A stretch of DNA of 64,000 nt, taken from assembly GCA_044360075.1 (NCBI GenBank), contig JBIKLA010000005.1:84095-148094 (forward strand), read 5' to 3'. The position numbers and the translations under genes are program-made. How positions within the stretch are numbered: position 1 is the stretch's first letter; every line of letters begins with the position of its first letter. The notes under the pieces are model-generated. The model saw nothing but the letters and a program-made list of their open reading frames with translations. It ran no database searches and was not told the origin of the DNA. The stretch comes from Bdellovibrionota bacterium. Lineage in GTDB: Bacteria; Bdellovibrionota_C; UBA2361; OMII01. Shown one piece after another: positions 15,163-54,975 of the stretch.

Positions 15163-17635
15163 TTACTTGCACACCGTTTCGGTGGTCGGCAGCTCGTTGA
15201 GGTTATCCAAGCCCTTGCGCTCTAGTTCCTTGGCTTTGCGAACGAGCGCGTCACGTCTGTTGGTCGAGCCGGTCTTGCGGAAGTACGCGCGGGCGATCGT
15301 TCGCTGCGCCTGGTTACGGGCGCTCGCAATGAGGCCCTTGAGCCGGGCGATGGTTTCTGTCCTGTCGACGGTCTCGCAATAAAGCGGCGCCTCTGGACAG
15401 TTTTTGATTACATCCGGGAATTGGATGGTTAAGCGGTTGGAGGCGGCAACAAATCCGTCCGCCTTGGCGCGTGCGCGCTGTGCGTCAGCTGCGGCACTAC
15501 CAGAGTCTTCTTCCGACGCCGCTTCAAGCACGTCTGCGGCCTCTTTTGTCAGGTTCGCAAGCTGAACCGTAATTTCGTCAAGCTCCCCTCGAGCTGCCCC
15601 GACAGCCGTATCGACACACTGGCCGTCACACACAGGAAGGCTTTCGTCCGCAACGGCTTTCCTGCCGTTGAGGTTCCAGTCTACCTGGGCTCCCGTCGAC
15701 GGAATGGTCACGTTGAAGAGGCCGGGATTGAGCCCAGAGAAGAAGACCGAGGGCTGGCCTCGGAAAGCCGGCACCGGTGCCATGAAGTTAAGGCCCCCTA
15801 CAGGGATCTCAACCGGGAACGGGTTGGGATTGCTGTATCCCGCCTTCGCCGTCAGCACTTGGTTGTTGAACCCCCGGCACGAGAACGCCGGCTCAACCAT
15901 TTGGCACTTTGGTGTTGATGCCGAGGCAGTGGCACGGGACTCAGCAGAGCGCGGGGCGCGAACGGTCCATGTGATCTCCGCCTCGCTGAACGATATCGCG
16001 ACGAGGCCCTTTTGGACCCCTGGCGCAAAAGCGGTCGGTTGCCCACGATCCTCTGCGCCGCTTGTGAAGCGATTAGTGACGACCGGCAAGCCGGACGACC
16101 CAACCGACATGAAAAACGTTTCCTGAGTCGTGTTGTTGTAGCTGAAGTAAGCCATACGGGAGCCATCGATATTATCCATGACACACTCAACCGAAAGGGA
16201 AAGCAGCGTACTATCGTCTCCCTCGTTGTTGTCTTGCGAGCTTGAGCAGCCGCCGTCAGCGAGGTCAGGCGCGCCATCAGCGTCGTTGTCGACCCCGTCC
16301 TGGCACTGGGCTTTCGGCGAGGATTCATCGCGGTCCTGCGGGCTTGAGCAGCTAAAGTCAGACGGGAAGTCAGCGGCACCATCGCCGTCGTTGTCGACCC
16401 CGTCCTGGCATTGGGAGGTGCCATCGCTCTCGTTGTCATCCTGCCTGCTTGAGCACCCCGGATCATTCAAGTCCGTCATGCCATCGTTGTCGTTGTCGAC
16501 GCCGTCTTGGCAGCTTGCCTTGGGCAGCGCCTCGTCGTTGTCCAGGGCACTTGAGCAGCTAAAGTCCGCCGGGTAGTCAGCCGCACCATCGTTGTCGTTG
16601 TCGAGGCCGTCCCGGCACTGCGGGGTGCCGTCTCCCTCGTTGTTGTCCTGGTTGCTGGAGCATCCAGGGTCATTAGAGTCGGTGACGCCGTCGTTGTCGT
16701 TGTCCACGCCATCTTGGCATTGAGACTTCGGTGAGCTCTCGTCGGTGTCCTGCGAGCTTGAGCAGCTAAAGTCCGCTGGGTAGTCAGCTGCGCCATCGTT
16801 GTCGTTATCGATGCCGTCCTGGCATTGAGACCGTGGCGAGCTCTCGTCGGGATCCTGGGGACTTGAGCAACTAGCGTCAGCCGGGAAGTCGGTTGCACCA
16901 TCGTTATCGTTGTCGATACCGTCCTGGCACTGCGACTTCGGCGAGCTCTCGTTGGTGTCCTGCGGGCTTGAGCAGCTAAAGTCAGCTGGATAGTCAGCCG
17001 CACCATCGTTATCGTTGTCGATGCCGTCCTGGCACTGCGAGGTGCCATCACCCTCGTTATTGCCTTGGTTGCTCGAGCACCCCGGATCATTGAGGTCGGT
17101 CAGGCCGTCCCCGTCGTTGTCGGCGCCGTCCTGGCACTGTGGCCGTGGATTCGCCTCGTCGTTGTCGCTTGCACTTGAGCAGCTGGTGTCCGCCGGGTAG
17201 TCGCGGGCGCCGTCGCCATCGTTGTCAATCCCATCGGCGCAAGCAGGAGTAACGCAATTGCACTGTACGTTCGTGACGTTGGCAGGATTACCAACCGCCT
17301 TCGCATTGGAGAGAACCTTTTGCTCGCCCGCCTCTCGGGCCGCAAAGTAGCAGTGAGTGTTGTTACCGGGGCTGCGGAAGGTGCCCGTGAGTACCGCCGA
17401 GTAGGTGAGAGACTCCCTGCTCGCAGCGCCGAGGGCAACCCGGCAAACCTCGCGAATCTCTTTGTCTTGGGCACTGACGCCGTCACAGCCCGCAACTCCG
17501 AAGTAGTTTTTTGCCTGGTAGTATCCGACGTATATGCTCTGGATCGCGCACTGGGCTTGGGCAATTTGCGGGATTAGTGAGCTGGACAAGACAGAAAGGA
17601 TCAGAGCCTTGAGGAGCTTAGGAGTACGCATCATG
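15163..17635 (-). CDS. secreted Ca-binding repeat protein (10 thrombospondin-type-3-like DxDxDG repeats, Cys-rich)
   Basis: Signal peptide MMRTPKLLKALILSVLSSSLIPQIAQA; alternating 34/35-aa repeats CQDG(I/V)DNDNDG...; the ATG start at 17633-17635 was chosen rather than the upstream in-frame extension. Confidence 0.7.
16200..17240. repeat. ~1-kb tandem DNA repeat (period ~105/210 bp) encoding the TSP3-like protein repeats
   Basis: The visible nucleotide periodicity matches the 34/35-aa alternating protein repeats. Confidence 0.7.
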
Positions 17636-18045
17636 GGATATCTCACGCGATAAACAACTTTGGAGCAACGATACAACAGTTGGCGGAAACCGACCGAAAC
17701 CAGGCGCAACAACCCAAAAAACCACGATTGAAATAATCCGATTGGGGCAAAAGAGCAAATCACAGGTGACTTTTGTTACCAACCAATTTTCCCTCTGTAG
17801 CCAGGCTCCACGCCCACCGAAGCCACAAGCCAGCCGTCCCCCAAACGGCCGCAAGCCGAGGAGGAGATGAGCACGAGCGGTGGACAGAAGATACACGTCC
17901 CCCTAGCGTCCCGGAGAACGCGTGAGCGGTGTGGATGGTGTGCCTACGCCCTGAAGACGTTGGCGAGCTTCGGCATAGACGGGGGGAACAGCCCGGGCGG
18001 ATCGCGCACAGAGGTGCCTCCCTGGTGCCATCTCTCTCTAGGCGA

Positions 18046-18470
18046 ACAAAGTAGCCCGGCTACAGGCGAAGAGGGGGAGGCGAGTCGTCCGGCTACATAC
18101 AGGAAAGGCGAAGGCGAAGTAGCCCGGCTACATGCAGATGCAGAGATGCAGAGTAGTAGCCCGGCTACAGGCGAGGGAGTAGCCCGGCCACATACAGGCG
18201 GACATACAGGCGCAGGCCCACCTGCAGGCGCGAGAAATATAGTTGTTTCATTAGCTTAGTCTTGCAGAGTAGTAGCCCGGCTACAGGCGAATACAGGCGA
18301 GGCGAGTAGCCCGGCTACAGGCGAAGGCGAAGGCGAAGTAGCCCGGCTACATGCAGATGCAGAGATGCAGGGTAGTAGCCCGGCTACATACAGGCGGACA
18401 TACAGGAGCAAGGAGCAGGCCCACCTGCAGGCGCGAGAAGTGTAGTTGTTTCATTAGCTTAGTCTTCTGG
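18046..18470. repeat. array of nine GTAGC-CYG-GCTAC near-palindromic 13-nt motifs at 32-37 bp spacing, including a ~212-bp tandem duplication
   Basis: The motif AGTAGCCCGGCTACA recurs at ~18050, 18085 (degenerate), 18118, 18155, 18180, 18271, 18306, 18338 and 18374. The block 18100-18262 is repeated at 18312-18470. Confidence 0.75.
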
Positions 18471-18545: not shown

Positions 18546-21059
18546 ATGACTCAGGACCACGACCAGCGGCCAAAAGGCGGTGCTGGGCAAGACCGGGATC
18601 GGCAGTCAGCTCGTCATGAGGCGGGAACCCCCGCCCCGTTGGACCTATCTGCGGCAACCGGCGTTGGCGAAGCGTGCACGACGGCCTCCGTACTGCGCAA
18701 GTTGCACGCCTACCTTAATGATGCCGAGAAGGGAGCAGCCTCCGTGCTTCGGGACCCGCAGGTCGGCGTTGTGCAGGATCTCCACGAGTTTTATCGCCAG
18801 GACAAGACGTGGGGATTTATCAAGCTTCCGACTGGGTCCGGCAAGACGGTCATCTTTGCTGAGATCGCTGAGGCACTTAATCTTCCGACCCTCGTCGTCG
18901 TGCCCAAGATTGGAATAGGGGACCAAACTGTTAACACCTTCCGCAAGTTCGCCCCTGACATGAAGGTCTCCCCGATTTTTGCGGGACAGCACGACGACAG
19001 TGGGCAGGTAGTTGTGACTACCTACCAGTATCTTGCGCAGGCAGCTCAGGATGGTCGGCTCGACCTCTCGCGATTTCAGTTTGTGATTCTCGACGAGGCA
19101 CATAAAAGTCTCGGCACCGAGATGCTTAAGGTCCTTGAAAGCATAGAGGACTCAACGAGAGTGCTCGGCTTCACTGCGACCGACACGTACAACGAGGAGA
19201 AGAACCTTGAGGCGCTGCTCGGTGAGTGCATATCCGACATGCCTATCTCGAGCGCCGTAAAACTGGGAATGCTGACACCGATCTCCGTCATCGTGGCGAA
19301 GACCACCATCGACGTAAGCGACGTGGAGATTAAAGCTAGTGGCGAGTACGACGAGCGCGCTCTCGAAAAGCGCATTCTGGCTGCCGGAATAAACAAGGCC
19401 TGCCTCGACACGTACAAAGCCGGCTTTGACGGCAAGAGCGCCATCGCTTTCTGCACGAGTGTTGCGCACGCCGAGGAGGCCGCAGAGATTTTCAACGAAA
19501 GCGGAGTCCCTTCTGCGGCGGTGAGCGGCTCGTTATCGCGAAAGGAGCAGGCGCGCATCCTTGAGGAGTACCGCAGCGGAAAGATAAAGGTTCTCTTTAA
19601 CGCTGACCTACTCATCGAGGGATTCGACGCGGAGATTGCCTCGGTGTGCCTCAACATGGCGCCGACCGGCTCGCTAATCGTAGCAGAGCAGAGAGCTGGC
19701 CGGGCGTTTCGCCTCAATCCGGGCGACTCGAGCAAGGTGGGATACGTCGTCGAATTCGTTTACGACGATGCGCGGCGACAGTCGCCGGTAATTCTCTACT
19801 CGGACATCATCGGCGGGACCGCCTGCCCACCGCCCGGGCAGTTGGCAAGCGCCGCAAAGGCAGAGATGGACTCAACGATTGAGAAGCTTAGCCGCTCTCA
19901 GATCGAGGGACTCACCATACACGTCGACGCAAGCTCCGTTCTTGAGATCGCAGCGAAGCTTAAACCTGCAACGTTCGTTGCATCTCCCCCGGATGGCTGG
20001 ATTTCGACGTCTGAGCTTGGGCGCTCCCTGCGCGCATCCCTCTCTACCGTCATGAAGATGATCAGCACCCTCACGCCGGAGGAGGAAAAGAGAGTGCCCC
20101 TCGACCAGCACTGCGGCCACTATCGCGCCCCGTCCACCGGACGGCTGTCGCTCCATTGCTCACCTGAATTGGCCGAACTCATTGCAGCCAAGCGCCGAGA
20201 GTTTGAGCCCCCGCAGGGATGGATGACCATAACTGCCATCGCAGAGCTCTTTTCGGTGCCTCCCAGTAAGGTTCAGCCGGTGCTTCGGGAGGTTGCAGCG
20301 GGCAGTCCCGACATGATTCGGCAGTACGCTATTCGGCGTGGCGGCCTGCGTGAGCACTACTCACCCGAGTGCATAGAAGCCGCGCGTGAGCATCTGCGGG
20401 TCAATCCAGAGAAGTTGCCGATGTTTTCTTCGGCTTCCGTTGCATCCAAGTGCAAGGTTCCTGACTTTGTGATGAGGTCATGGGTGCGCGAGCTGGTTGA
20501 AAGTGGGGAGCTGTACGAGGTTATTAAGCTCAGCAAGACCGGCAAGCCGACGTTGCGCATTACCCAGCAGCCAGGCGCTGAGAAGAAGATGCGCGATAAG
20601 GCGATCGCGTTTCATGGGCGTGACCTCGAGCAGGAGCGCTCACTGGATGAGATCGCGAAGGACATGAATGTAGGTGTCTCCAAGGTTGCCGACGCTCTTG
20701 CGCGCCGTTTTGGAAGGGCGCCGCAGCCCTCAGACACGTCAGTTCCGCTGGATCTTGAGGAGCCCCTGAAGCGCATAGTGGCGTCTGAGTCGACGGGACC
20801 ACTGCCGGAGTGGGTGATGTCAAACGACCTCGCTAGAGAGGCCCAAGACATGCTGTCGTCCTTTCCCATAGCAACCGGCATTGCTAGGAACATCATTCAA
20901 AAACGGCTGGACGCTCTCATCAGCCGCCTTCCCGAGTATCACCGACTTCCATTTCGTGATCCCGCTTCGGGAGCCACACGCGACTACTACTCGCCGCAGT
21001 TCTCCAAGCTTTTCCTGGACCCTGAGCACTGGCGTGATCTCGCCGAAGAGTATCAGTAA
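18546..21059 (+). CDS. SF2 DEAH-box helicase (Res/XPB-like core) with a ~400-aa uncharacterised C-terminal region
   Basis: Walker A LPTGSGKT, motif II ILDEAHKS, motif VI QRAGRAFR; the C-terminal half has no recognisable motifs. Confidence 0.75.
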   Translation: MTQDHDQRPKGGAGQDRDRQSARHEAGTPAPLDLSAATGVGEACTTASVLRKLHAYLNDAEKGAASVLRDPQVGVVQDLHEFYRQDKTWGFIKLPTGSGKTVIFAEIAEALNLPTLVVVPKIGIGDQTVNTFRKFAPDMKVSPIFAGQHDDSGQVVVTTYQYLAQAAQDGRLDLSRFQFVILDEAHKSLGTEMLKVLESIEDSTRVLGFTATDTYNEEKNLEALLGECISDMPISSAVKLGMLTPISVIVAKTTIDVSDVEIKASGEYDERALEKRILAAGINKACLDTYKAGFDGKSAIAFCTSVAHAEEAAEIFNESGVPSAAVSGSLSRKEQARILEEYRSGKIKVLFNADLLIEGFDAEIASVCLNMAPTGSLIVAEQRAGRAFRLNPGDSSKVGYVVEFVYDDARRQSPVILYSDIIGGTACPPPGQLASAAKAEMDSTIEKLSRSQIEGLTIHVDASSVLEIAAKLKPATFVASPPDGWISTSELGRSLRASLSTVMKMISTLTPEEEKRVPLDQHCGHYRAPSTGRLSLHCSPELAELIAAKRREFEPPQGWMTITAIAELFSVPPSKVQPVLREVAAGSPDMIRQYAIRRGGLREHYSPECIEAAREHLRVNPEKLPMFSSASVASKCKVPDFVMRSWVRELVESGELYEVIKLSKTGKPTLRITQQPGAEKKMRDKAIAFHGRDLEQERSLDEIAKDMNVGVSKVADALARRFGRAPQPSDTSVPLDLEEPLKRIVASESTGPLPEWVMSNDLAREAQDMLSSFPIATGIARNIIQKRLDALISRLPEYHRLPFRDPASGATRDYYSPQFSKLFLDPEHWRDLAEEYQ

Positions 21060-45688: not shown

Positions 45689-46618
45689 ATGAAGGCGCTT
45701 GGTCAGTTTCTCGGGTATGTGGCGGTCCGCGGGTTCTTTGGGGCGCTGGCGCTTCTTCCGCAGGAGGCTCGCATAGGCTTTTTCCGAACGCTCTTTGTGC
45801 TGGCGACGAAGGTCGTGCCGAGGCTTCGAAGGATATCAATACGCAACCTCGAGCTTGCGTTCCCCGAGAAAGATGACGCCTGGCGGCGAGAGATCTTTTC
45901 GAAGAACTTAACTGAGATGTCGCGCCTCCTTGCCGACACGGTTCGGATGCCGTCGCTGGATGAGGCGTGGGTGCGCACGCATGTGCGGTGCGATTTCCTG
46001 CCAGAGTATGTGGACCGCCTTAAGAAGATGGATGGCAAGGGATGGCTTATCGCAACTGGCCACCTGGGCAGCTTTGAGCTGCTTGGGCACACGATAGGAG
46101 TGCTGGGCTATCCGCTATCGGCTATCGCCAGAAAGTTCCGCAACCCCATGCTTGATCGCTGGTGGACTAAGCTTCGTGAGGGAAGCGGCAATACGATCAT
46201 TGATCGGCGCGGAGCATTCAAGGCGATGGTGTCGCACGTAAGCAAGGGCCGCTCGGTGGCGGTGCTTTTTGACCAGAACGTCACTCGTAACTACGCGGTA
46301 TTTCCCCTGTGGTTTAGGGTTCCGGCTGCGACGACGCGGGCCCTGGCTCTGGCGGCGATCAAGACGGAAGCTCCCGTCGTCGTGGCCTCGATTCGATACA
46401 GCGGCAGCGACAACTACTCGATTGAGGCGTGTGAATGCCAGACCGAGGACATCTACCGGGACACGGTAATGCCTATGGATGACAAGGTGCTTCTTCTGAC
46501 ACAGCGGCTCTCTGACCACTACTGCCGCATGATAGTAGAGTTCCCCGAGGGGTGGTTTTGGCTGCACCGGCGCTGGGCCACCCAGTCGGATGAGAACGCG
46601 CCCTCAGTATACCGCTAG
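45689..46618 (+). CDS. LpxL/HtrB-family lipid A (Kdo2-lipid IVA) late acyltransferase-like protein
   Basis: N-terminal TM; lysophospholipid/lipid A acyltransferase family similarity (GHLGSFELLGH, NYAVFPLWF); the ATG is at 45689. Confidence 0.65.
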   Translation: MKALGQFLGYVAVRGFFGALALLPQEARIGFFRTLFVLATKVVPRLRRISIRNLELAFPEKDDAWRREIFSKNLTEMSRLLADTVRMPSLDEAWVRTHVRCDFLPEYVDRLKKMDGKGWLIATGHLGSFELLGHTIGVLGYPLSAIARKFRNPMLDRWWTKLREGSGNTIIDRRGAFKAMVSHVSKGRSVAVLFDQNVTRNYAVFPLWFRVPAATTRALALAAIKTEAPVVVASIRYSGSDNYSIEACECQTEDIYRDTVMPMDDKVLLLTQRLSDHYCRMIVEFPEGWFWLHRRWATQSDENAPSVYR

Positions 46619-46624
46619 CTCAGC
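46469..46624 (+). repeat. left copy of a ~150-bp imperfect direct repeat (the 3' end of the acyltransferase gene)
   Basis: ~85% identical to 49418..49569. Confidence 0.8.
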
Positions 46625-46968
46625 GCCTCACCGTGTTTTTGTCGTACGCTTGAGGTGGTTTCTAATCCGAAGAGCTTGTCAAAGCTGCACGATGTTGTGG
46701 CGAGGCACCTGAGAGGTGACGCAGGTCGCTTTGAGGCCCCCCTTTGTGATGGCCGGTCCGGAGCTGGGGCTCGACGTGTCTTGGTAAGTGAGGACCTCAA
46801 GGCATCTCACGAACTCGGGATCCCCTTTTCTGCCTTTGTGCATGAACACGGCCTCGCAAACCTCCTAAGCGCAGCCGTGTGGGTGCTGGGTGCCTAGCAA
46901 CATCCGCTCAATATGGCGGCTTTCGGGGATGCGTGGCTCCGGAAGGAGTCCGCTACAGGAGGCTCCAA

Positions 46969-47553
46969 CTAATAGCGAACACCGCCCTTCTTCACATAGC
47001 TTGCCAGCACCTGACACGACTCTTGCGCCAGAACTCCTTCTATCACTTCGACAGCACGCTCGGGGGGCTGCTTGGTTCTTAAAAGCTCTGCCCAATTCGA
47101 GGGGACTGGGCCTTCATCAAATCCGCCGATCTCGGTTGTTTGTTCGATAGACGTTCCCGTAACTACTCTTCGAACCCCTGACCACCAAATATTTCCAAAA
47201 CACTGAATACACGGCTGAGAGCTTGTAACTAGCTCTAATGCCGGGAGATGCGGCGCGCCGAGATTAAAGGTTTGCAAAACTTGCTGACTCACCATGATCG
47301 CCACAGATTCCGCATGCGCAATGGAGCACAACTCTACCTCAACGCGATTAACACCCGGAGCAATGAGCACGCCGCTATCTCGTTCGAAGACAGCCGCACC
47401 AAAAGGCCCTCCTGTACTGTAGTCGACATTTCGTTGCGCCAATGAAATCACAAAACGCATTCTCTCCTCGATTGACGCGTACCGTACGCCCGGGCGCACC
47501 TCACGCTGAAGCCACTCGGGCAATTGTATGGACACACTTGGGAAGGAAGACAT
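46969..47553 (-). CDS. CDA-fold nucleoside/nucleotide deaminase (guanine / cytidine-dCMP deaminase-like)
   Basis: Zinc motifs HAE and PCIQC; the gene GC is lower than its neighbours. Confidence 0.7.
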   Translation of the reverse strand: MSSFPSVSIQLPEWLQREVRPGVRYASIEERMRFVISLAQRNVDYSTGGPFGAAVFERDSGVLIAPGVNRVEVELCSIAHAESVAIMVSQQVLQTFNLGAPHLPALELVTSSQPCIQCFGNIWWSGVRRVVTGTSIEQTTEIGGFDEGPVPSNWAELLRTKQPPERAVEVIEGVLAQESCQVLASYVKKGGVRY

Positions 47554-48017
47554 GCGAATACTCCTGATAAAACGGGCGGCAAAGCGATGATGAACTCAAA
47601 CCCTCTGGTTACTTCCTTCGGATCCTCTGGCATATTCTTAAGGAATGTACCTGTGTTGAAGAGAGAGCCACCCCCAGAGCCGTGCCAGCTCTCAACGCGT
47701 CGATTGCAACCTTATCTCTGTCGCAATTTACTCTAGCAATCTGAATAATCCAGTCACAACATGCGACCTTTTGATTTATTGGGCGTTAAATAACCTCATG
47801 GGGGCCTCGCCGTCATCATTTGTCGGGAGATATTCGGTGCTCGCCATGTACAAGGCAGCTACGTCGACAGGGATAAAGAGCTGAAAGCTCCTCATATCCC
47901 CATGGAGATAGAGTAACGGGACTACACGGTGTCTTGCGTGCTCCCGGCCGTACTCACCCCGTACCGAGTATACCTCTGGAGTGCGTTAGCTGCGCGTGCA
48001 GCTAATGCTTCTATCCA

Positions 48018-49174
48018 CTAGTCGGTGCCGCTGTCGTTCTCGGCCAGATGGATCTTTCCCTCACGCAGGTAAACGCGCTTTACGGCGATTCCAAGCTCAC
48101 GTTCATACCGTTTTACCGCTTTTGCCTGAGGCCCACAGACCAATGACAAGGTGACCCCACGCTCTCCCGCCCGCCCAGTTCGTCCTGCTCGGTGTAGGTA
48201 GGCGCTACTCTCCGTAGGAACATCGAGGTTGAACACGTGGGTCACCCCCTTGATATCGAGCCCACGAGCCGCAACGTCAGAAGCGATAAGAACGTCAACC
48301 GCACCGCTTCGAATGCTATCCATCGCTCTTTTACGATCCTCCTTATCGTGGGCTCCGTGAAGATCGGCAACGCGCATCTTGTGATGAGCAAGCTTACTCG
48401 CCAAGATCTCTGCACTCTCATTTTTATGAACAAAAACCATGGCTTTATCGGGCTTCATCGCGTGAATGAGCTTGCGCACGAGGTCAGGCTTGTCCCTCTC
48501 TTCACAGACCAGATACAGATGCTCGATATTCGAGTTGACGGGCGGTGCTCCCGTTTTTATTCGGGCAATATCAGGGGCAAGCGTCGCAATCGCCTCTGCG
48601 GCCTCTGTGCGCTCGGTGGCTGACGCGAAGATAAATGCGCGATCGCGCAGAGTAGATTTTGCTATCACTCTCAGGTCATCGAGACTTTCGGAGGTAAGGA
48701 CCCGATCTGCTTCGTCGACAACGATGGCTCGTACATAGTGCGTCTTGAGCTTGCCGTCTTCTATCAGCTCGCGGATGCGCCCGGGAGAGCCGATCACGAC
48801 ATGCGGCTTCTTCTTCAACTTTTCGAGCTGTCGCTCTCGCGGAGTTCCTCCGATGAGGAGGACGACCCGAATCGGGAGTCCAGAAAGCTGTGATAGATTT
48901 GTACACTCACGCTGAATTTGAATCGCAAGCTCGTGGGTTGGTGCAATCACCATCACCTGCGCGTTGGCGAGTTTCGGATCGATCCTCGAGTACAACGGCA
49001 ATAGGTAGGCTAACGTCTTACCGGTCCCGGTTTCTGCCTGCAGATACGCGCTCTTTCCTTGAAGGAGCTCTGGGATGGCGGCTGCCTGGATTGGTGTAGG
49101 CTCCCCGATGGATTGCTTTGTCAAAGCGATTATGAGGTCAGGATGAACACCTAACTCGGCGAATGTCGGACTCA
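48018..49174 (-). CDS. DEAD-box ATP-dependent RNA helicase
   Basis: Q-motif; AETGTGKT; DEAD (VVDEAD); SAT; HRAGRTGRAG; the start was taken at MSPTFAELGV. Confidence 0.85.
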
Positions 49175-49417
49175 TGGCGGACCTTGTGAAACGCGCTAAG
49201 CATGCGAGGAAAGTACACTTATACAGCCTTGCGATCCGACAAGCAAAAAGACTCTCAAAAGATTGGGCAACGCTCCTCCCTGGTGAAAGGGCCGCGTATG
49301 CAACGGGCACCGGCCGTTGTGCCCGACCACCCCGAAATGTTCACCCTCTCGTGCACCTTGGCAGCGATATTGGTCCTGAAGATACCCACAATAATGTTAA
49401 GGGCAGGAACATCAACT

Positions 49418-49569
49418 CACCTGGATGGCAAGGTGCTGATCTTGACGCAGCGGCTCTCTAAGCACTACTGCCGCATCATAGCAGAGTGACCTCAGGGGTG
49501 GTTTTGGCTGCACCAGGGCTGGGCGAGCAAGCCGGATGAGAGAGCGCCTTCGGTATACCGCTAGCGAAG
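49418..49569 (+). pseudogene. degenerate duplicate of the acyltransferase 3' end (right direct repeat), with an in-frame TGA
   Basis: Encodes DGKVLILTQRLSKHYCRIIAE* versus DDKVLLLTQRLSDHYCRMIVEFPEGW... in the intact copy. Confidence 0.6.
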
Positions 49570-49573
49570 CGCC

Positions 49574-49966
49574 TTACTTCTTGTGCTCGTTGAAGAGCGC
49601 GGCGAAGCCCTTAAGAGAACCCTCGGGCACGTTTGCCTCAAGCTTCCTCCAGTCGACATCTAGCACCTGTCCGATCGCTTGTTTAGCGCCCTTAGGCACG
49701 TGGCTTGGGAACTTGTTAGGATGGTGCCGTTTGAGCTGATTGTCGTACGAAACCTGATATCCACCGGGAACGTCGACGTGCGCGTGCGTGATAACCTCGC
49801 CGTTCTCGATGCGCGGCTTGTCACGCCGCGCGGTGTACCTGCCGACCGTAGCGCGTGTCGCCTCGTCAAGCAGGACCGGACGCACGGGGAGCGAGAGGCT
49901 CTCGGTTGGGCGCTCCTGTCGCTGGCCCTCTTTTTGGGCGACAAACTCTTTGAAGCTAAGTCCCAT
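49574..49966 (-). CDS. hypothetical protein (~130 aa)
   Basis: An ORF only (MGLSFKEFVAQKEG...). Confidence 0.3.
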   Translation of the reverse strand: MGLSFKEFVAQKEGQRQERPTESLSLPVRPVLLDEATRATVGRYTARRDKPRIENGEVITHAHVDVPGGYQVSYDNQLKRHHPNKFPSHVPKGAKQAIGQVLDVDWRKLEANVPEGSLKGFAALFNEHKK

Positions 49967-50114: not shown

Positions 50115-52052
50115 GTGCGATATTATTCCCGCATGTCAGAGGCCTGCCAAAACTACCACATCCTCATAAAGCTCTTTCCGCTGCTGTGCATCGTTGCCTT
50201 TACGGGTTTCGTGCAGGGGCGGGGATTTTTGTGGTGCATCGTGGCCGGAACGGCACTCTACCATGTTCTCAACTTCACGATTCCGCTGGTGCTCGGGAAC
50301 CTTGGATTCCTTCTTCCAAACCATTACAGCGCAGTGATGATCACAGTGTCTGTAGTCCTTGTGGCGATAGGTGCCTACTCGCTGCAGAAGGCAGTTTGGA
50401 GCGGGGGCCTACGTGAGAGAATTTCGGCTCTTCGCTTTCGGCCGCACTGGTTTGATATTCCGATTCTGCTGGCGGTTGCCCAGGCGTTTAAGAATGTGGG
50501 AATTGAGCACCGCTTTGGCTGGGTAGAGGGGCCGGGCTTCTTCGATGCGGCGAACTACCATGTGCCGCGGGCGCTCATGTGGAGCTGGCACGGCAACATG
50601 GAGCCCTACATGACACCGGTGTGGCAGATGATCGCCCACCCCTTCGGCGGCTCGGCTTCACTTCTTTCGCCGGTTCTCTTTGGCTGCGGATGGCTCGGAG
50701 GGGGGTATGCTTCGGAGGTGCTCTCGCTTGGTGGAGCAGCTGCCGTGGCGATGCTCGGCCGTAGCTTTGGCTTTTCTGGGCGGGGTGCGCTGCTCGCAGC
50801 AGTCGCCTTCATCTCGTTTCCTCCCGTTGGGCTTCGGATGTCGGACGTGAATACTGATATCGCGGGAACGTTTCCGATTATCGCGGCAGCAGCGCTCTTT
50901 CGGGGAGCGGGCTCGCTTGGGGAGGCGGTGTTCCTCTTCCTCGCCCTGACGGGCCTGGGGTCGGCGTGCAAGCAGTATGCGGGATTCGTCGCCGCGCCAA
51001 TCGGGCTGATGCTCGCCTACCCCAGCTTCAAGAGGATCTTCACCGATGTGAGGGTTATCGGCGCGGGCTTTGCCGGCGGGGTTGTGGCTGCGGTTTTTAT
51101 GTTCCTGTCGCTGCGGCCGGTGTACCTCGCATTCGGCGACTTCTCAGGGGGAGGAACCGCGGTGGGCCTCACCAACTTCGCAATCGGGCTTGGCCCAACG
51201 TGGTCGGCCCTCATGTACTACCTGCTCACAACGGTCTTTGACCCATTTAGCTTTCTGCCGGACAACTGGCAGCTATTTGGAACCCAGTACACGCGCCGAG
51301 GCCTCTTTGAGGCGCTCCACGTTAACCAGATCTACAACTTTTTTGGGCACACTACATTCGGCGACTTTTCGATGATGAGCCAGGAGCGGAACAAGACGGG
51401 GATGCTCTCAATCCTGATCCTTCCGTGGTTGATCATGGGCTTTAAAAAGGGAACCCGCTGGCTGGTGTTTGGGAGTTTTACCATTATTTGCCTCTTCCAG
51501 TATGCACCGCTTGCCACAAACCACGTCGGGGCCCGCTTCGCCATCCTGCCGTTGGCAGCGTTTGCGCTGTTGTGGGGAGGACGCGCAAACACCAGGCCGG
51601 CGCTTGTGGCGCTATGCATCTTGGTTGCCCTCCTGTGCGACAGAAATTACCTGGAGGGCCGCGGATGGGCGGAGGAGTACAACCCGCTGACGGAGCAGAA
51701 CCGGGATCTCTTTCCGCTGGTGAAGAGCGACACGATAATTCTGCTTTCGAGCTCGCTCCCGCAGGACGCGTTCGTTGCTGGCCGGCTTGCGCAGGCGCGC
51801 TTCGAGTACGTGGTGTGCCCGCAGGACGGCGACTGGACAAGAACTCTCACAGAGTACAGGAAGGGCTACAAGTGGTTCCTGTTTTCCACAAAAGAGGCCA
51901 ATCCGATGCCGGGACCGAACTTTCCGACCCTGCTCTCGCCGCCATGCAAGGCGGTCGCGCTTAATGAGCTGCGCAGCTCGCTGACAAAAGCAGGCTGGAA
52001 GTATCAGAGGAACTTTGACCGCAGCCAGCTTGAGCTGTGGACGCTGCAGTAG
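50115..52052 (+). CDS. polytopic membrane protein, putative GT-C-type glycosyltransferase (ArnT/PMT-like architecture)
   Basis: More than 10 predicted TM helices plus a C-terminal soluble domain; it sits in a glycan/lipid A locus. Confidence 0.4.
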   Translation: MRYYSRMSEACQNYHILIKLFPLLCIVAFTGFVQGRGFLWCIVAGTALYHVLNFTIPLVLGNLGFLLPNHYSAVMITVSVVLVAIGAYSLQKAVWSGGLRERISALRFRPHWFDIPILLAVAQAFKNVGIEHRFGWVEGPGFFDAANYHVPRALMWSWHGNMEPYMTPVWQMIAHPFGGSASLLSPVLFGCGWLGGGYASEVLSLGGAAAVAMLGRSFGFSGRGALLAAVAFISFPPVGLRMSDVNTDIAGTFPIIAAAALFRGAGSLGEAVFLFLALTGLGSACKQYAGFVAAPIGLMLAYPSFKRIFTDVRVIGAGFAGGVVAAVFMFLSLRPVYLAFGDFSGGGTAVGLTNFAIGLGPTWSALMYYLLTTVFDPFSFLPDNWQLFGTQYTRRGLFEALHVNQIYNFFGHTTFGDFSMMSQERNKTGMLSILILPWLIMGFKKGTRWLVFGSFTIICLFQYAPLATNHVGARFAILPLAAFALLWGGRANTRPALVALCILVALLCDRNYLEGRGWAEEYNPLTEQNRDLFPLVKSDTIILLSSSLPQDAFVAGRLAQARFEYVVCPQDGDWTRTLTEYRKGYKWFLFSTKEANPMPGPNFPTLLSPPCKAVALNELRSSLTKAGWKYQRNFDRSQLELWTLQ

Positions 52053-54576: not shown

Positions 54577-54975
54577 ATGAAGTATGAAGAGATCGAGATC
54601 GGACAATTCGGCGAGGTGACTAAGAGCTTCACGGAGCGCGATGTTGAGGCCTTTGCCGAGCTGTCGCTTGACACAAATCCGATACATCTCGACGAGGCAT
54701 ACGCGGCAACGACGATCTTCAAGAAGAGGATCGTGCACGGGATGCTTTCGTCGTCGCTTATCAGCGCAGCGCTTGCAACGAAGTGTCCCGGCGCGGGTTC
54801 CATCTACCTTGGGCAGGAGCTTTCGTTCCAGAAGCCGGTGTACATTGGCGACACGCTGACGGCGCGGGTTGAGGTAATCGAGAAGCGCCCAAAGCGTGTT
54901 GTGGTGCTGAGCACGACCGTCACAAACCAAAACGGCGACACGGTGATCACCGGCAAAGCTATTCTCAAGAAATAA
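54577..54975 (+). CDS. MaoC-like (R)-specific enoyl-CoA hydratase / hotdog dehydratase
   Basis: FTERDVEAFAELSLDTNPIHLD...IVHGML. Confidence 0.75.
   Translation: MKYEEIEIGQFGEVTKSFTERDVEAFAELSLDTNPIHLDEAYAATTIFKKRIVHGMLSSSLISAALATKCPGAGSIYLGQELSFQKPVYIGDTLTARVEVIEKRPKRVVVLSTTVTNQNGDTVITGKAILKK

Follow-up and report, generated by a model that had tools for sequence, protein, structure and literature searches.

Results

Organization of the acyltransferase locus

The DNA considered here is a 64,000-nt stretch of the genome of a Bdellovibrionota bacterium (assembly GCA_044360075.1, contig JBIKLA010000005.1, positions 84,095 to 148,094 of the forward strand), which we refer to in its full length as the window. 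It carries an intact gene for an LpxL-family lipid A acyltransferase whose 3′ end recurs downstream as a dead fragment, and the two copies of this tail enclose 2,790 bp of DNA with genes for a guanine-deaminase-like protein and a DEAD-box RNA helicase. We interpret this arrangement as the scar of an old insertion of foreign DNA. The features of the locus, by position in the window, are as follows.

45689-46618, plus strand: LpxL-family lipid A acyltransferase gene, 309 aa, intact; PF03279 (Lip_A_acyltrans), E=7e-41
46476-46631, plus strand: repeat copy A, the functional acyltransferase tail; codons 263-309, TAG stop codon at 46616-46618 and 13 nt past the stop
46632-46968: non-coding left end of the insert, 337 nt, between the converging acyltransferase and deaminase genes
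46969-47553, minus strand: guanine-deaminase-like gene of the cytidine-deaminase fold, 194 aa, intact; PF00383
47554-48017: low-GC spacer, 464 nt, 51% GC, non-coding
48018-49178, minus strand: DEAD-box RNA helicase gene, 385 aa, intact; PF00270 and PF00271 (DEAD/Helicase_C)
49179-49421: non-coding DNA from the helicase to copy B, 243 nt
49179-49311, minus strand: helicase leader or upstream region, brought along with the gene, with a degenerate GC-rich hairpin; 93% identical to related locus L148 over 130 nt
49340-49398, minus strand: malic-enzyme 3′ remnant, the last ~20 codons, degenerate, colinear with the helicase
49422-49577, plus strand: repeat copy B, an acyltransferase-tail pseudogene fragment; TGA at 49487-49489, relic TAG at 49562-49564
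49565-49573: spacer of 9 nt between the relic TAG of copy B and the convergent 130-aa gene
49574-49966, minus strand: hypothetical 130-aa gene on the right flank, intact, of the same length as in related locus L002

The acyltransferase start codon can be fixed because the homologues are likewise 309 aa long; the protein scores under the cutoffs of the NCBIfam lauroyl-acyltransferase models. Both bracketed genes are what a first-pass annotation of the sequence had taken them for, a deaminase (PF00383 at 46969-47553) and a DEAD-box helicase (DEAD/Helicase_C at 48018-49178). The deaminase matches the PDB 2g84 family of NE0047-type guanine deaminases over its full length (E=3.5e-40), and its closest homologues are 98% and then 77% identical. 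An identification as TadA was rejected, the TadA model giving 37 bits against a cutoff of 150.

The direct repeat and the decay of its second copy

The two tail copies form the single long dispersed direct repeat of the window, aligning without gaps over 156 nt at 83% identity with a spacing of 2946 nt. The first-pass annotation had recognized this repeat and placed it at 46469-46624 and 49418-49569 with ~85% identity; the repeat is real, and those coordinates were off by 4-8 nt. It extends 13 nt beyond the acyltransferase stop codon and so takes in the spacer and the position at which the 130-aa gene has its stop, from which it follows that the duplicated unit originated at this very site. 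A tblastn search with the acyltransferase matches copy B at 70% identity over 47 aa (E=2.4e-19), and the repeat is therefore not a product of chance. The match is confined to residues 263-309, and no acyltransferase-like sequence was found by tblastn upstream of copy B in the window, in agreement with the earlier description of this copy as a remnant that contains an in-frame TGA and has no upstream open reading frame (ORF).

Translated in the acyltransferase frame, copy B reads HLDGKVLILTQRLSKHYCRIIAE, stop, PQGWFWLHQGWASKPDERAPSVYR, stop. The first of these stops, the TGA, replaces Phe285, which is invariant in the family, and copy B is altered at six such invariant residues (M281I, F285 to stop, E287Q, R294Q, R295G and T298S). 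Over the 143 sites that can be compared between copy A, copy B and the orthologue at L002, 15 site patterns are specific to B, 8 are specific to A and 8 separate L002 from both copies. The 15 B-specific substitutions are distributed 6:5:4 across codon positions 1, 2 and 3, whereas the third position accounts for 6/8 of the A-specific and 6/8 of the L002-separating ones. Copy A differs from L002 by 12 synonymous and 4 non-synonymous codon changes, and from copy B by 7 synonymous and 14 non-synonymous changes. Both the spread over codon positions and these counts point to copy B as a neutrally decaying fragment, with a drift of ~0.11 substitutions per site, and to copy A as a sequence held by purifying selection.

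At the nucleotide level copy A is 88% and copy B 83% identical to L002, and the GC content of third codon positions (GC3) is 0.77 in each; both copies are thus resident-like, which argues for a duplication in place. Neither the identity to L002 nor GC3 shows a step along the acyltransferase gene. The longest run identical between A and B, of 21 nt, codes for the invariant EGWFWLH motif and is almost unchanged in L002; constraint on the protein can explain the identity, and the run need not be a crossover core.

Related loci and the break of synteny

Scanning species-representative genomes with the acyltransferase alignment yielded almost only uncultured freshwater Bdellovibrionota and ‘Deltaproteobacteria’ metagenome-assembled genomes. 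Contigs on which the acyltransferase reaches 67% identity or more to that of the window have ~60% GC, and those at 64% or less have 49-56% GC. The closest locus, L001, comes from a different sample, is 98% identical in nucleotide sequence and agrees with the window in arrangement from the GT4 gene up to a point 134 nt into the helicase (48151), providing independent support for the left junction; the split deaminase calls there result from N gaps in the scaffold and not from decay.

A comparison with relatives, which the first-pass annotation had proposed as a check, shows that L002 and L003, which represent the nearest other species (acyltransferase 87% identical), share both flanks of the insert without its genes. 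The neighbourhood is common to these loci and the window, running from L21, L27 and Obg through a 292-aa gene, the deacetylase, GT4 and the acyltransferase to the 130-aa gene, a gene of 639 aa and DegT. Homology to L002 and L003 ends at 46620, 2 nt past the acyltransferase stop, and restarts at 49575, where the 130-aa gene has its stop codon and copy B its right edge. In place of the insert both loci carry an unrelated 893 bp with a 149-aa hypothetical membrane-like gene (L002:6320-7212), and no second acyltransferase tail was found in this filler at L002. The run of polysaccharide deacetylase, GT4 and acyltransferase has the same order in L002, L003 and L011 with the acyltransferase last; in L011 (acyltransferase 76%) it is followed by a different convergent ORF of 825 aa. 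The end of the acyltransferase is accordingly a synteny break in all three lineages, that of the window, that of L002 and L003, and that of L011.

None of 61 related acyltransferase loci has a second acyltransferase tail within 10 kb, and no relative examined has a deaminase adjoining the acyltransferase. A search for a decayed 3′ end of the 130-aa gene after copy A, and for homology to the DNA after the L002 stop, gave marginal matches only (p 0.02-0.25). Among these are a weak similarity of window positions 46675-46756 to the ~100 nt that follow the L002 acyltransferase stop (p ~0.02-0.05) and one of the same ~100 nt to the 3′ end of the 130-aa gene (p 0.02-0.05).

Further along the right flank lies a 645-aa ORF (50115-52052) whose L002 orthologue is 88% identical; neither of the two matches Pfam, NCBIfam or PDB sequences, and the label ‘GT-C’ that the first-pass annotation had given the window ORF could not be verified. 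At L004-L007, where the acyltransferase is 70-71% identical, it is directly followed by a PMT_2 (GT-C) gene that is unrelated to the 645-aa ORF.

Composition of the insert

The insert has 54.5% GC against a window mean of 58.8%, and the lowest 300-nt windows, at 48-52%, lie around 46950-48000. The dip in GC reported by the first-pass annotation is thus real, if overstated: the stretch has ~52% against 59%, rather than ~50% against ~62%. GC3 is 0.52 in the deaminase and 0.59 in the helicase, and ranges from 0.62 to 0.79 in the 22 other window genes measured. By these measures the insert is compositionally foreign, its two genes having the lowest GC3 of the 24.

The non-coding left end (46632-46968) diverges from L001 by ~5%, compared with ~1% for the neighbouring genes. 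A patch of it at 46707-46745 shows 10 single-nucleotide differences from L001 in 39 nt, in sequence that is otherwise 98-99% identical; it is a hypervariable or replaced piece of non-coding DNA after copy A.

A malic-enzyme remnant and the origin of the helicase

The helicase has many homologues at 88-92% amino acid identity, and those contigs of theirs for which DNA was fetched have 50-55% GC; a scan of metagenome contigs with the helicase returned relatives at 65% identity or less only. In four contexts from lower-GC (54-55%) relatives (L008/L009, L145, L146/L147 and the P0127 contig) the gene stands in the order CMAS-type methyltransferase (minus strand), malic enzyme (plus) and helicase (plus), and in L010 and the P0135 contig its contexts are different ones. 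GC3 of the helicase in the lower-GC relatives is 0.60-0.62, typical of its neighbours there. Nucleotide homology of these relatives to the window covers the helicase gene and 20-70 nt upstream (a leader of ~66-70 nt is common to the window, L008 and L010), with a single further match. This is window 49340-49398, which aligns by blastn with the 3′ terminus of the malic-enzyme gene in L008 at 47/59 nt; strand and order with respect to the helicase agree as well. When a profile of four malic-enzyme 3′ ends was run with nhmmer against the 64 kb, its best match fell on this remnant (E=5.7e-7, envelope 49323-49418). The remnant peptide NIIVGIFRTNIAAKVHERV is a degraded form of YIIPGIFKSDVATKVAERV, which is invariant among the malic-enzyme genes compared, and no malic-enzyme gene is present elsewhere in the window.

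This match and its colinearity mean that copy B directly adjoins a truncated malic-enzyme gene, after which comes the normal neighbour of that gene. The right end of the insert is therefore an arbitrary break in a chromosomal gene and not an attachment (att) site or the arm of an attP. The left limit of the helicase segment is indicated by L148, whose helicase is 97% identical in amino acids and ~95% in nucleotides to that of the window, shares the 130-nt leader and diverges 17-20 nt past the helicase stop. The insert is therefore composite, its deaminase half being of separate origin, and the join of the two pieces lies near 48000. Remnants of the genes found downstream of the helicase in relatives were not found in the left half of the insert.

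Identities at four-fold degenerate sites, counted within identical codon families, were as follows.

Window helicase and L148: 84%
Window helicase and L008: 61%
Window helicase and L145/L146: 53-54%
Window helicase and L010: 50%
Helicases of L008 and L145: 48%
Malic enzymes of L008 and L145: 53%
Window acyltransferase and five loci of 53-55% GC (60-64% amino acid identity): 32-40%, saturation
Five window genes and the acyltransferase, against L002: 46-68%

By these values the window helicase nests inside the malic-enzyme-helicase clade, though the window genome lies outside that clade. A calibration with assembly GCA_043771805.1 gave 74% identity for the helicase and 52% for the acyltransferase, both saturated at synonymous sites. 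We consider it quite likely, from the nesting of the gene, that the helicase piece was acquired horizontally from a lineage like that of L008 or L148.

Several observations on the helicase in other genomes may be added. At L010:10001-11146 the gene (~90% amino acid identity) sits in a 50%-GC genome with a GC3 of 0.57 against 0.47-0.53 for its neighbours, in an unrelated context, as on the P0135 contig; it may have been transferred among Bdellovibrionota lineages more than once. L008:8260-9900 holds, between malic enzyme and helicase, a gene for a secreted-looking protein of 418 aa with copies of a GC-rich hairpin (GGACGGCG..CGCCGTCC) on either side. The same hairpin survives in degenerate form upstream of the helicase leader both in the window (~49300-49325) and in L148, and hairpins of this type may mark a local site of insertion or recombination. 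At L149:1021-4573, in a more distant relative (helicase 74%, Obg 76%), the helicase is convergent to an L21-L27-Obg run ~1.3 kb away; the window helicase lies ~5.5 kb from Obg, a loose resemblance that is probably a coincidence.

Search for features of mobile elements

No integrase, transposase or recombinase remnant was detected with Pfam in any ORF or in the stop-to-stop frames of the three non-coding stretches (46600-47000, 47520-48050 and 49150-49600), where frames of at least 35 aa gave no Pfam match at all; the first-pass annotation, too, had seen no remaining integrase. There is no tRNA, tmRNA or Rfam match across the region, and the ends of the insert lack terminal inverted repeats. 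No nucleotide match to the insert was found among phages and plasmids, the deaminase has no relative among viral contigs, and the PADLOC defence-system models applied to the insert returned generic superfamily-2 helicase similarity only. Promoter and terminator scans of the region remained at background level. Insertion of a transposon or insertion sequence was considered and rejected: the locus shows neither inverted repeats nor a transposase domain, and the duplication measures 156 nt rather than a short fixed length.

Other features of the window

The near-palindromic motif GTAGCCCGGCTAC is present 8 times in the intergenic region 18040-18470, upstream of an 837-aa ORF (18546-21059, plus strand), where two tandem units of ~219 nt each end in ...TAGTTGTTTCATTAGCTTAGTCTT. 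It is absent from the rest of the window, with 0.04 occurrences expected by chance, and the array could represent protein-binding sites or hairpins resembling repetitive extragenic palindromes. Within an 866-aa ORF (15163-17763, minus strand), positions 16281-17203 consist of ~7-9 tandem units of 105 nt (35 aa) that match one another at 66-77%, indicating a repeat-domain protein. A single sub-threshold match to Rfam CRISPR-DR12 at 54753-54779 (minus strand; 26 bits against a gathering score of 37, E=0.087) is probably due to chance.

Discussion

The insertion at the acyltransferase locus is genuine, old and foreign in origin, and what it has left behind is a recombination scar rather than a mobile element or a new system. 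The first-pass annotation had proposed that an element integrated into the 3′ end of the gene, with a ‘duplication/recombination scar’ as its fallback. Much of the former description is retained, since differing DNA does lie between two tail copies, the acyltransferase ORF is preserved and the inserted genes are absent from L002 and L003; it is the element with attL/attR sites that is lost, and the fallback has become the reading favoured by the evidence. The scar belongs among known integrase-independent insertion events. Unusual about it are a 156-bp target duplication that saved two converging genes and a fragment of the donor's neighbouring gene.

How could DNA of a foreign chromosome have come to lie between two copies of a resident gene tail? 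We lean, if only slightly, towards an old entry of foreign chromosomal DNA that involved no recombinase and proceeded by illegitimate recombination with duplication of the target in place. The starting state was probably an acyltransferase gene and a convergent 130-aa gene standing tail to tail, 9 nt apart. Some 2.8 kb of lower-GC DNA in at least two pieces, taken up perhaps by a route such as transformation, would have been joined into this site by non-homologous or microhomology recombination. One piece would be the guanine-deaminase-like gene; the other, comprising the malic-enzyme 3′ end, the leader and the helicase, would have been cut from the malic-enzyme/helicase locus of a related Bdellovibrionota lineage with lower GC. 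If the two joins were staggered by 156 nt, one at acyltransferase codon 263 and one immediately beyond the stop of the 130-aa gene, the stretch of resident DNA that they span would have been duplicated, with one copy left on each side. Selection would then have kept whichever copy was attached to a coding region, so that both converging genes stayed intact and of the same length as in L002. Copy A would thereby have kept the acyltransferase whole, and copy B, functionless beside the 130-aa gene, would have been free to drift. The right junction (49421/49422) joins the truncated malic-enzyme tail to acyltransferase codon 263. Rough clocks fit a single event: ~0.11 per site for copy B, 16% of four-fold sites between the helicases of the window and L148, and 20% of sites between the malic-enzyme remnant and L008.

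Several points weigh against this history. The presumed empty site, in which 9 nt separate the acyltransferase from the 130-aa gene, is absent from the sampled genomes, L002 and L011 both differing past the acyltransferase stop. The right junction with its leader, malic-enzyme remnant and copy B occurs in this window only, since L001 ends at 48151 and L148 at the equivalent of 49306. Copies A and B and L002 form a three-way split (15, 8 and 8 patterns over 143 nt) that neither orders the insertion relative to the separation from L002 nor derives A and B from a single resident sequence after it. Target duplications of ~150 bp are unusual for bacterial insertions. For the deaminase piece, the nearest homologues after the one at 98% are 77% identical. 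The weakest step, finally, is that the helicase contigs are tied to the clade with acyltransferase identities of 64% or less by GC class and not by genome membership.

One rival is a decayed integrative element, in which a site-specific recombinase would have acted on an attP carrying a replacement acyltransferase 3′ end, and the integrase and other genes would later have been lost or replaced. Integrative elements such as e14 and phage 21 at icd restore their target gene in just this way, from a fragment borne on attP. Direct repeats of a target 3′ end with a restored ORF are their classic footprint, and at protein-coding targets such as icd the repeat blocks reach ~250 bp (PMC7192596). As with these elements, and with islands in tRNA genes, the scar lies in the 3′ end of a conserved gene, with tail repeats of ~150 bp, a preserved ORF, a displaced dead tail at the far end and a different composition between the repeats; the insert is of lower GC and absent from L002, and a 21-nt identical run is common to both copies. 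Unlike them, it has no integrase or element genes, no recombinase remnant being detected in any frame. Where the insert meets copy B it consists of a broken chromosomal malic-enzyme gene, beside which stands the usual neighbour of that gene, and the cargo is of housekeeping type without PADLOC, phage or plasmid signal. The 21-nt run amounts to the EGWFWLH codons, equally conserved in L002, so that the repeats, resident-like in composition and 83% identical, show no clear core beyond a conserved protein motif, and with a second tail at 0/61 loci the acyltransferase tail is not a recurrent target. L002 and L003 lack the insert and copy B, carrying their different 893-bp filler at the same place, and show no clean uninterrupted attB. 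On balance we regard the attL/attR element of the first-pass annotation as very unlikely. Still less credible, and in our view highly improbable, is the alternative that the annotation had itself named, a tandem acyltransferase paralogue decayed in place, or else an assembly chimera of two strains. Copy B does derive from the acyltransferase, and it follows the intact gene in the same orientation. Of a paralogue, however, only codons 263-309 would be left, with nothing acyltransferase-like upstream; no relative among the 61 loci has two copies; and copy B is as close to the L002 orthologue as to copy A, so it is no old paralogue. A chimera is contradicted by the nonsense codon and the changes at invariant residues, which show that copy B is not the working gene of another strain, by the lack of any shared k-mer at 49421/49422 that could cause a misjoin and by the independent confirmation of the left junction in L001.

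Two further rivals were considered. Microhomology-mediated template switching, as described under microhomology-mediated break-induced replication (MMBIR) and fork stalling and template switching (FoSTeS), gives templated insertions flanked by duplication. Acting within the genome, a broken fork could have copied a malic-enzyme/helicase locus and a deaminase locus and returned 156 nt upstream, with no foreign entry at that time. The scar resembles such products in its composite insert of chromosomal chunks from unrelated loci, in breakpoints that lie within genes and in the flanking direct duplication of the target, the expected signature of serial switches, and mobile-element features are lacking. 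The inserted genes, however, are foreign both in composition, with the lowest GC3 of 24 genes, and in phylogeny, the helicase nesting in the lower-GC clade by synonymous-site identity. Intragenomic copying is insufficient without an earlier transfer to supply these genes, and the 64-kb window, the sole part of the genome examined, holds no malic-enzyme gene; we consider this route distinctly unlikely. The other rival, which we judge simply unlikely, is homology-facilitated illegitimate recombination with DNA of a close relative in which acyltransferase, deaminase, helicase and malic-enzyme fragment already stood in this order. Here a crossover by homology inside the acyltransferase and an illegitimate join at resident codon 263 would have brought in copy A together with deaminase, helicase and malic-enzyme fragment, displacing the resident tail downstream as copy B. 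Homology-facilitated and double illegitimate recombination during uptake of foreign DNA is thought to leave orphaned 3′ fragments in type VI secretion system (T6SS) effector-immunity, Rhs and contact-dependent inhibition (CDI) loci (PMC5361080; PMC3240628), and the homology-facilitated mechanism has been proposed for the strings of such fragments there (PMC5361080). The scar shares with systems of illegitimate recombination the capture of non-homologous DNA without a recombinase at an arbitrary breakpoint, so that a foreign segment stands beside a conserved anchor gene, and with the T6SS, Rhs and CDI loci an earlier 3′ end of the upstream gene that has been pushed downstream and orphaned. A donor-supplied tail would explain why copy A is complete and copy B truncated, displaced and flush against the conserved right flank, and the three-way split of A, B and L002 allows the copies to have differed from the outset. 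The scar differs from those loci in that the retained tail is resident-like and not donor-derived, the cargo consists of housekeeping genes and not toxin-immunity modules, and there is a single event and not an array. With a GC3 of 0.77 and 88% identity to L002, copy A does not derive from the lower-GC lineage that supplied the helicase. No drop in identity to L002 marks a crossover along the acyltransferase, although a conspecific donor could still fit. Copy A also includes the spacer and the bases corresponding to the stop of the 130-aa gene, which implies a source with the same locus layout; no relative has a deaminase beside the acyltransferase; and the model merely shifts the original illegitimate event to an unseen donor.

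The recombinase-free insertion with in-place duplication that we favour can be extended to a broader conjecture, namely that the scar records the capture of a xenologous housekeeping gene, the helicase moving repeatedly between freshwater Bdellovibrionota lineages (here and in L010), each time via illegitimate joins. The region directly upstream of the helicase is now made up of copy B and the malic-enzyme remnant, which may provide the promoter of the gene. We offer this extension as a doubtful though not negligible one.

The scar reveals no new system or mechanism. It provides a clean natural example of the entry of foreign chromosomal DNA without integrase or transposase, an event that was survivable because the target stretch was duplicated and two converging genes were thereby kept intact. 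It also serves as a warning for the search for genomic islands, since direct repeats of a gene 3′ end together with a dip in GC can mimic attL/attR sites where there is no mobile element. For the bacteria themselves, the locus points to the exchange of a core RNA helicase among lineages of an uncultured phylum of predatory bacteria.

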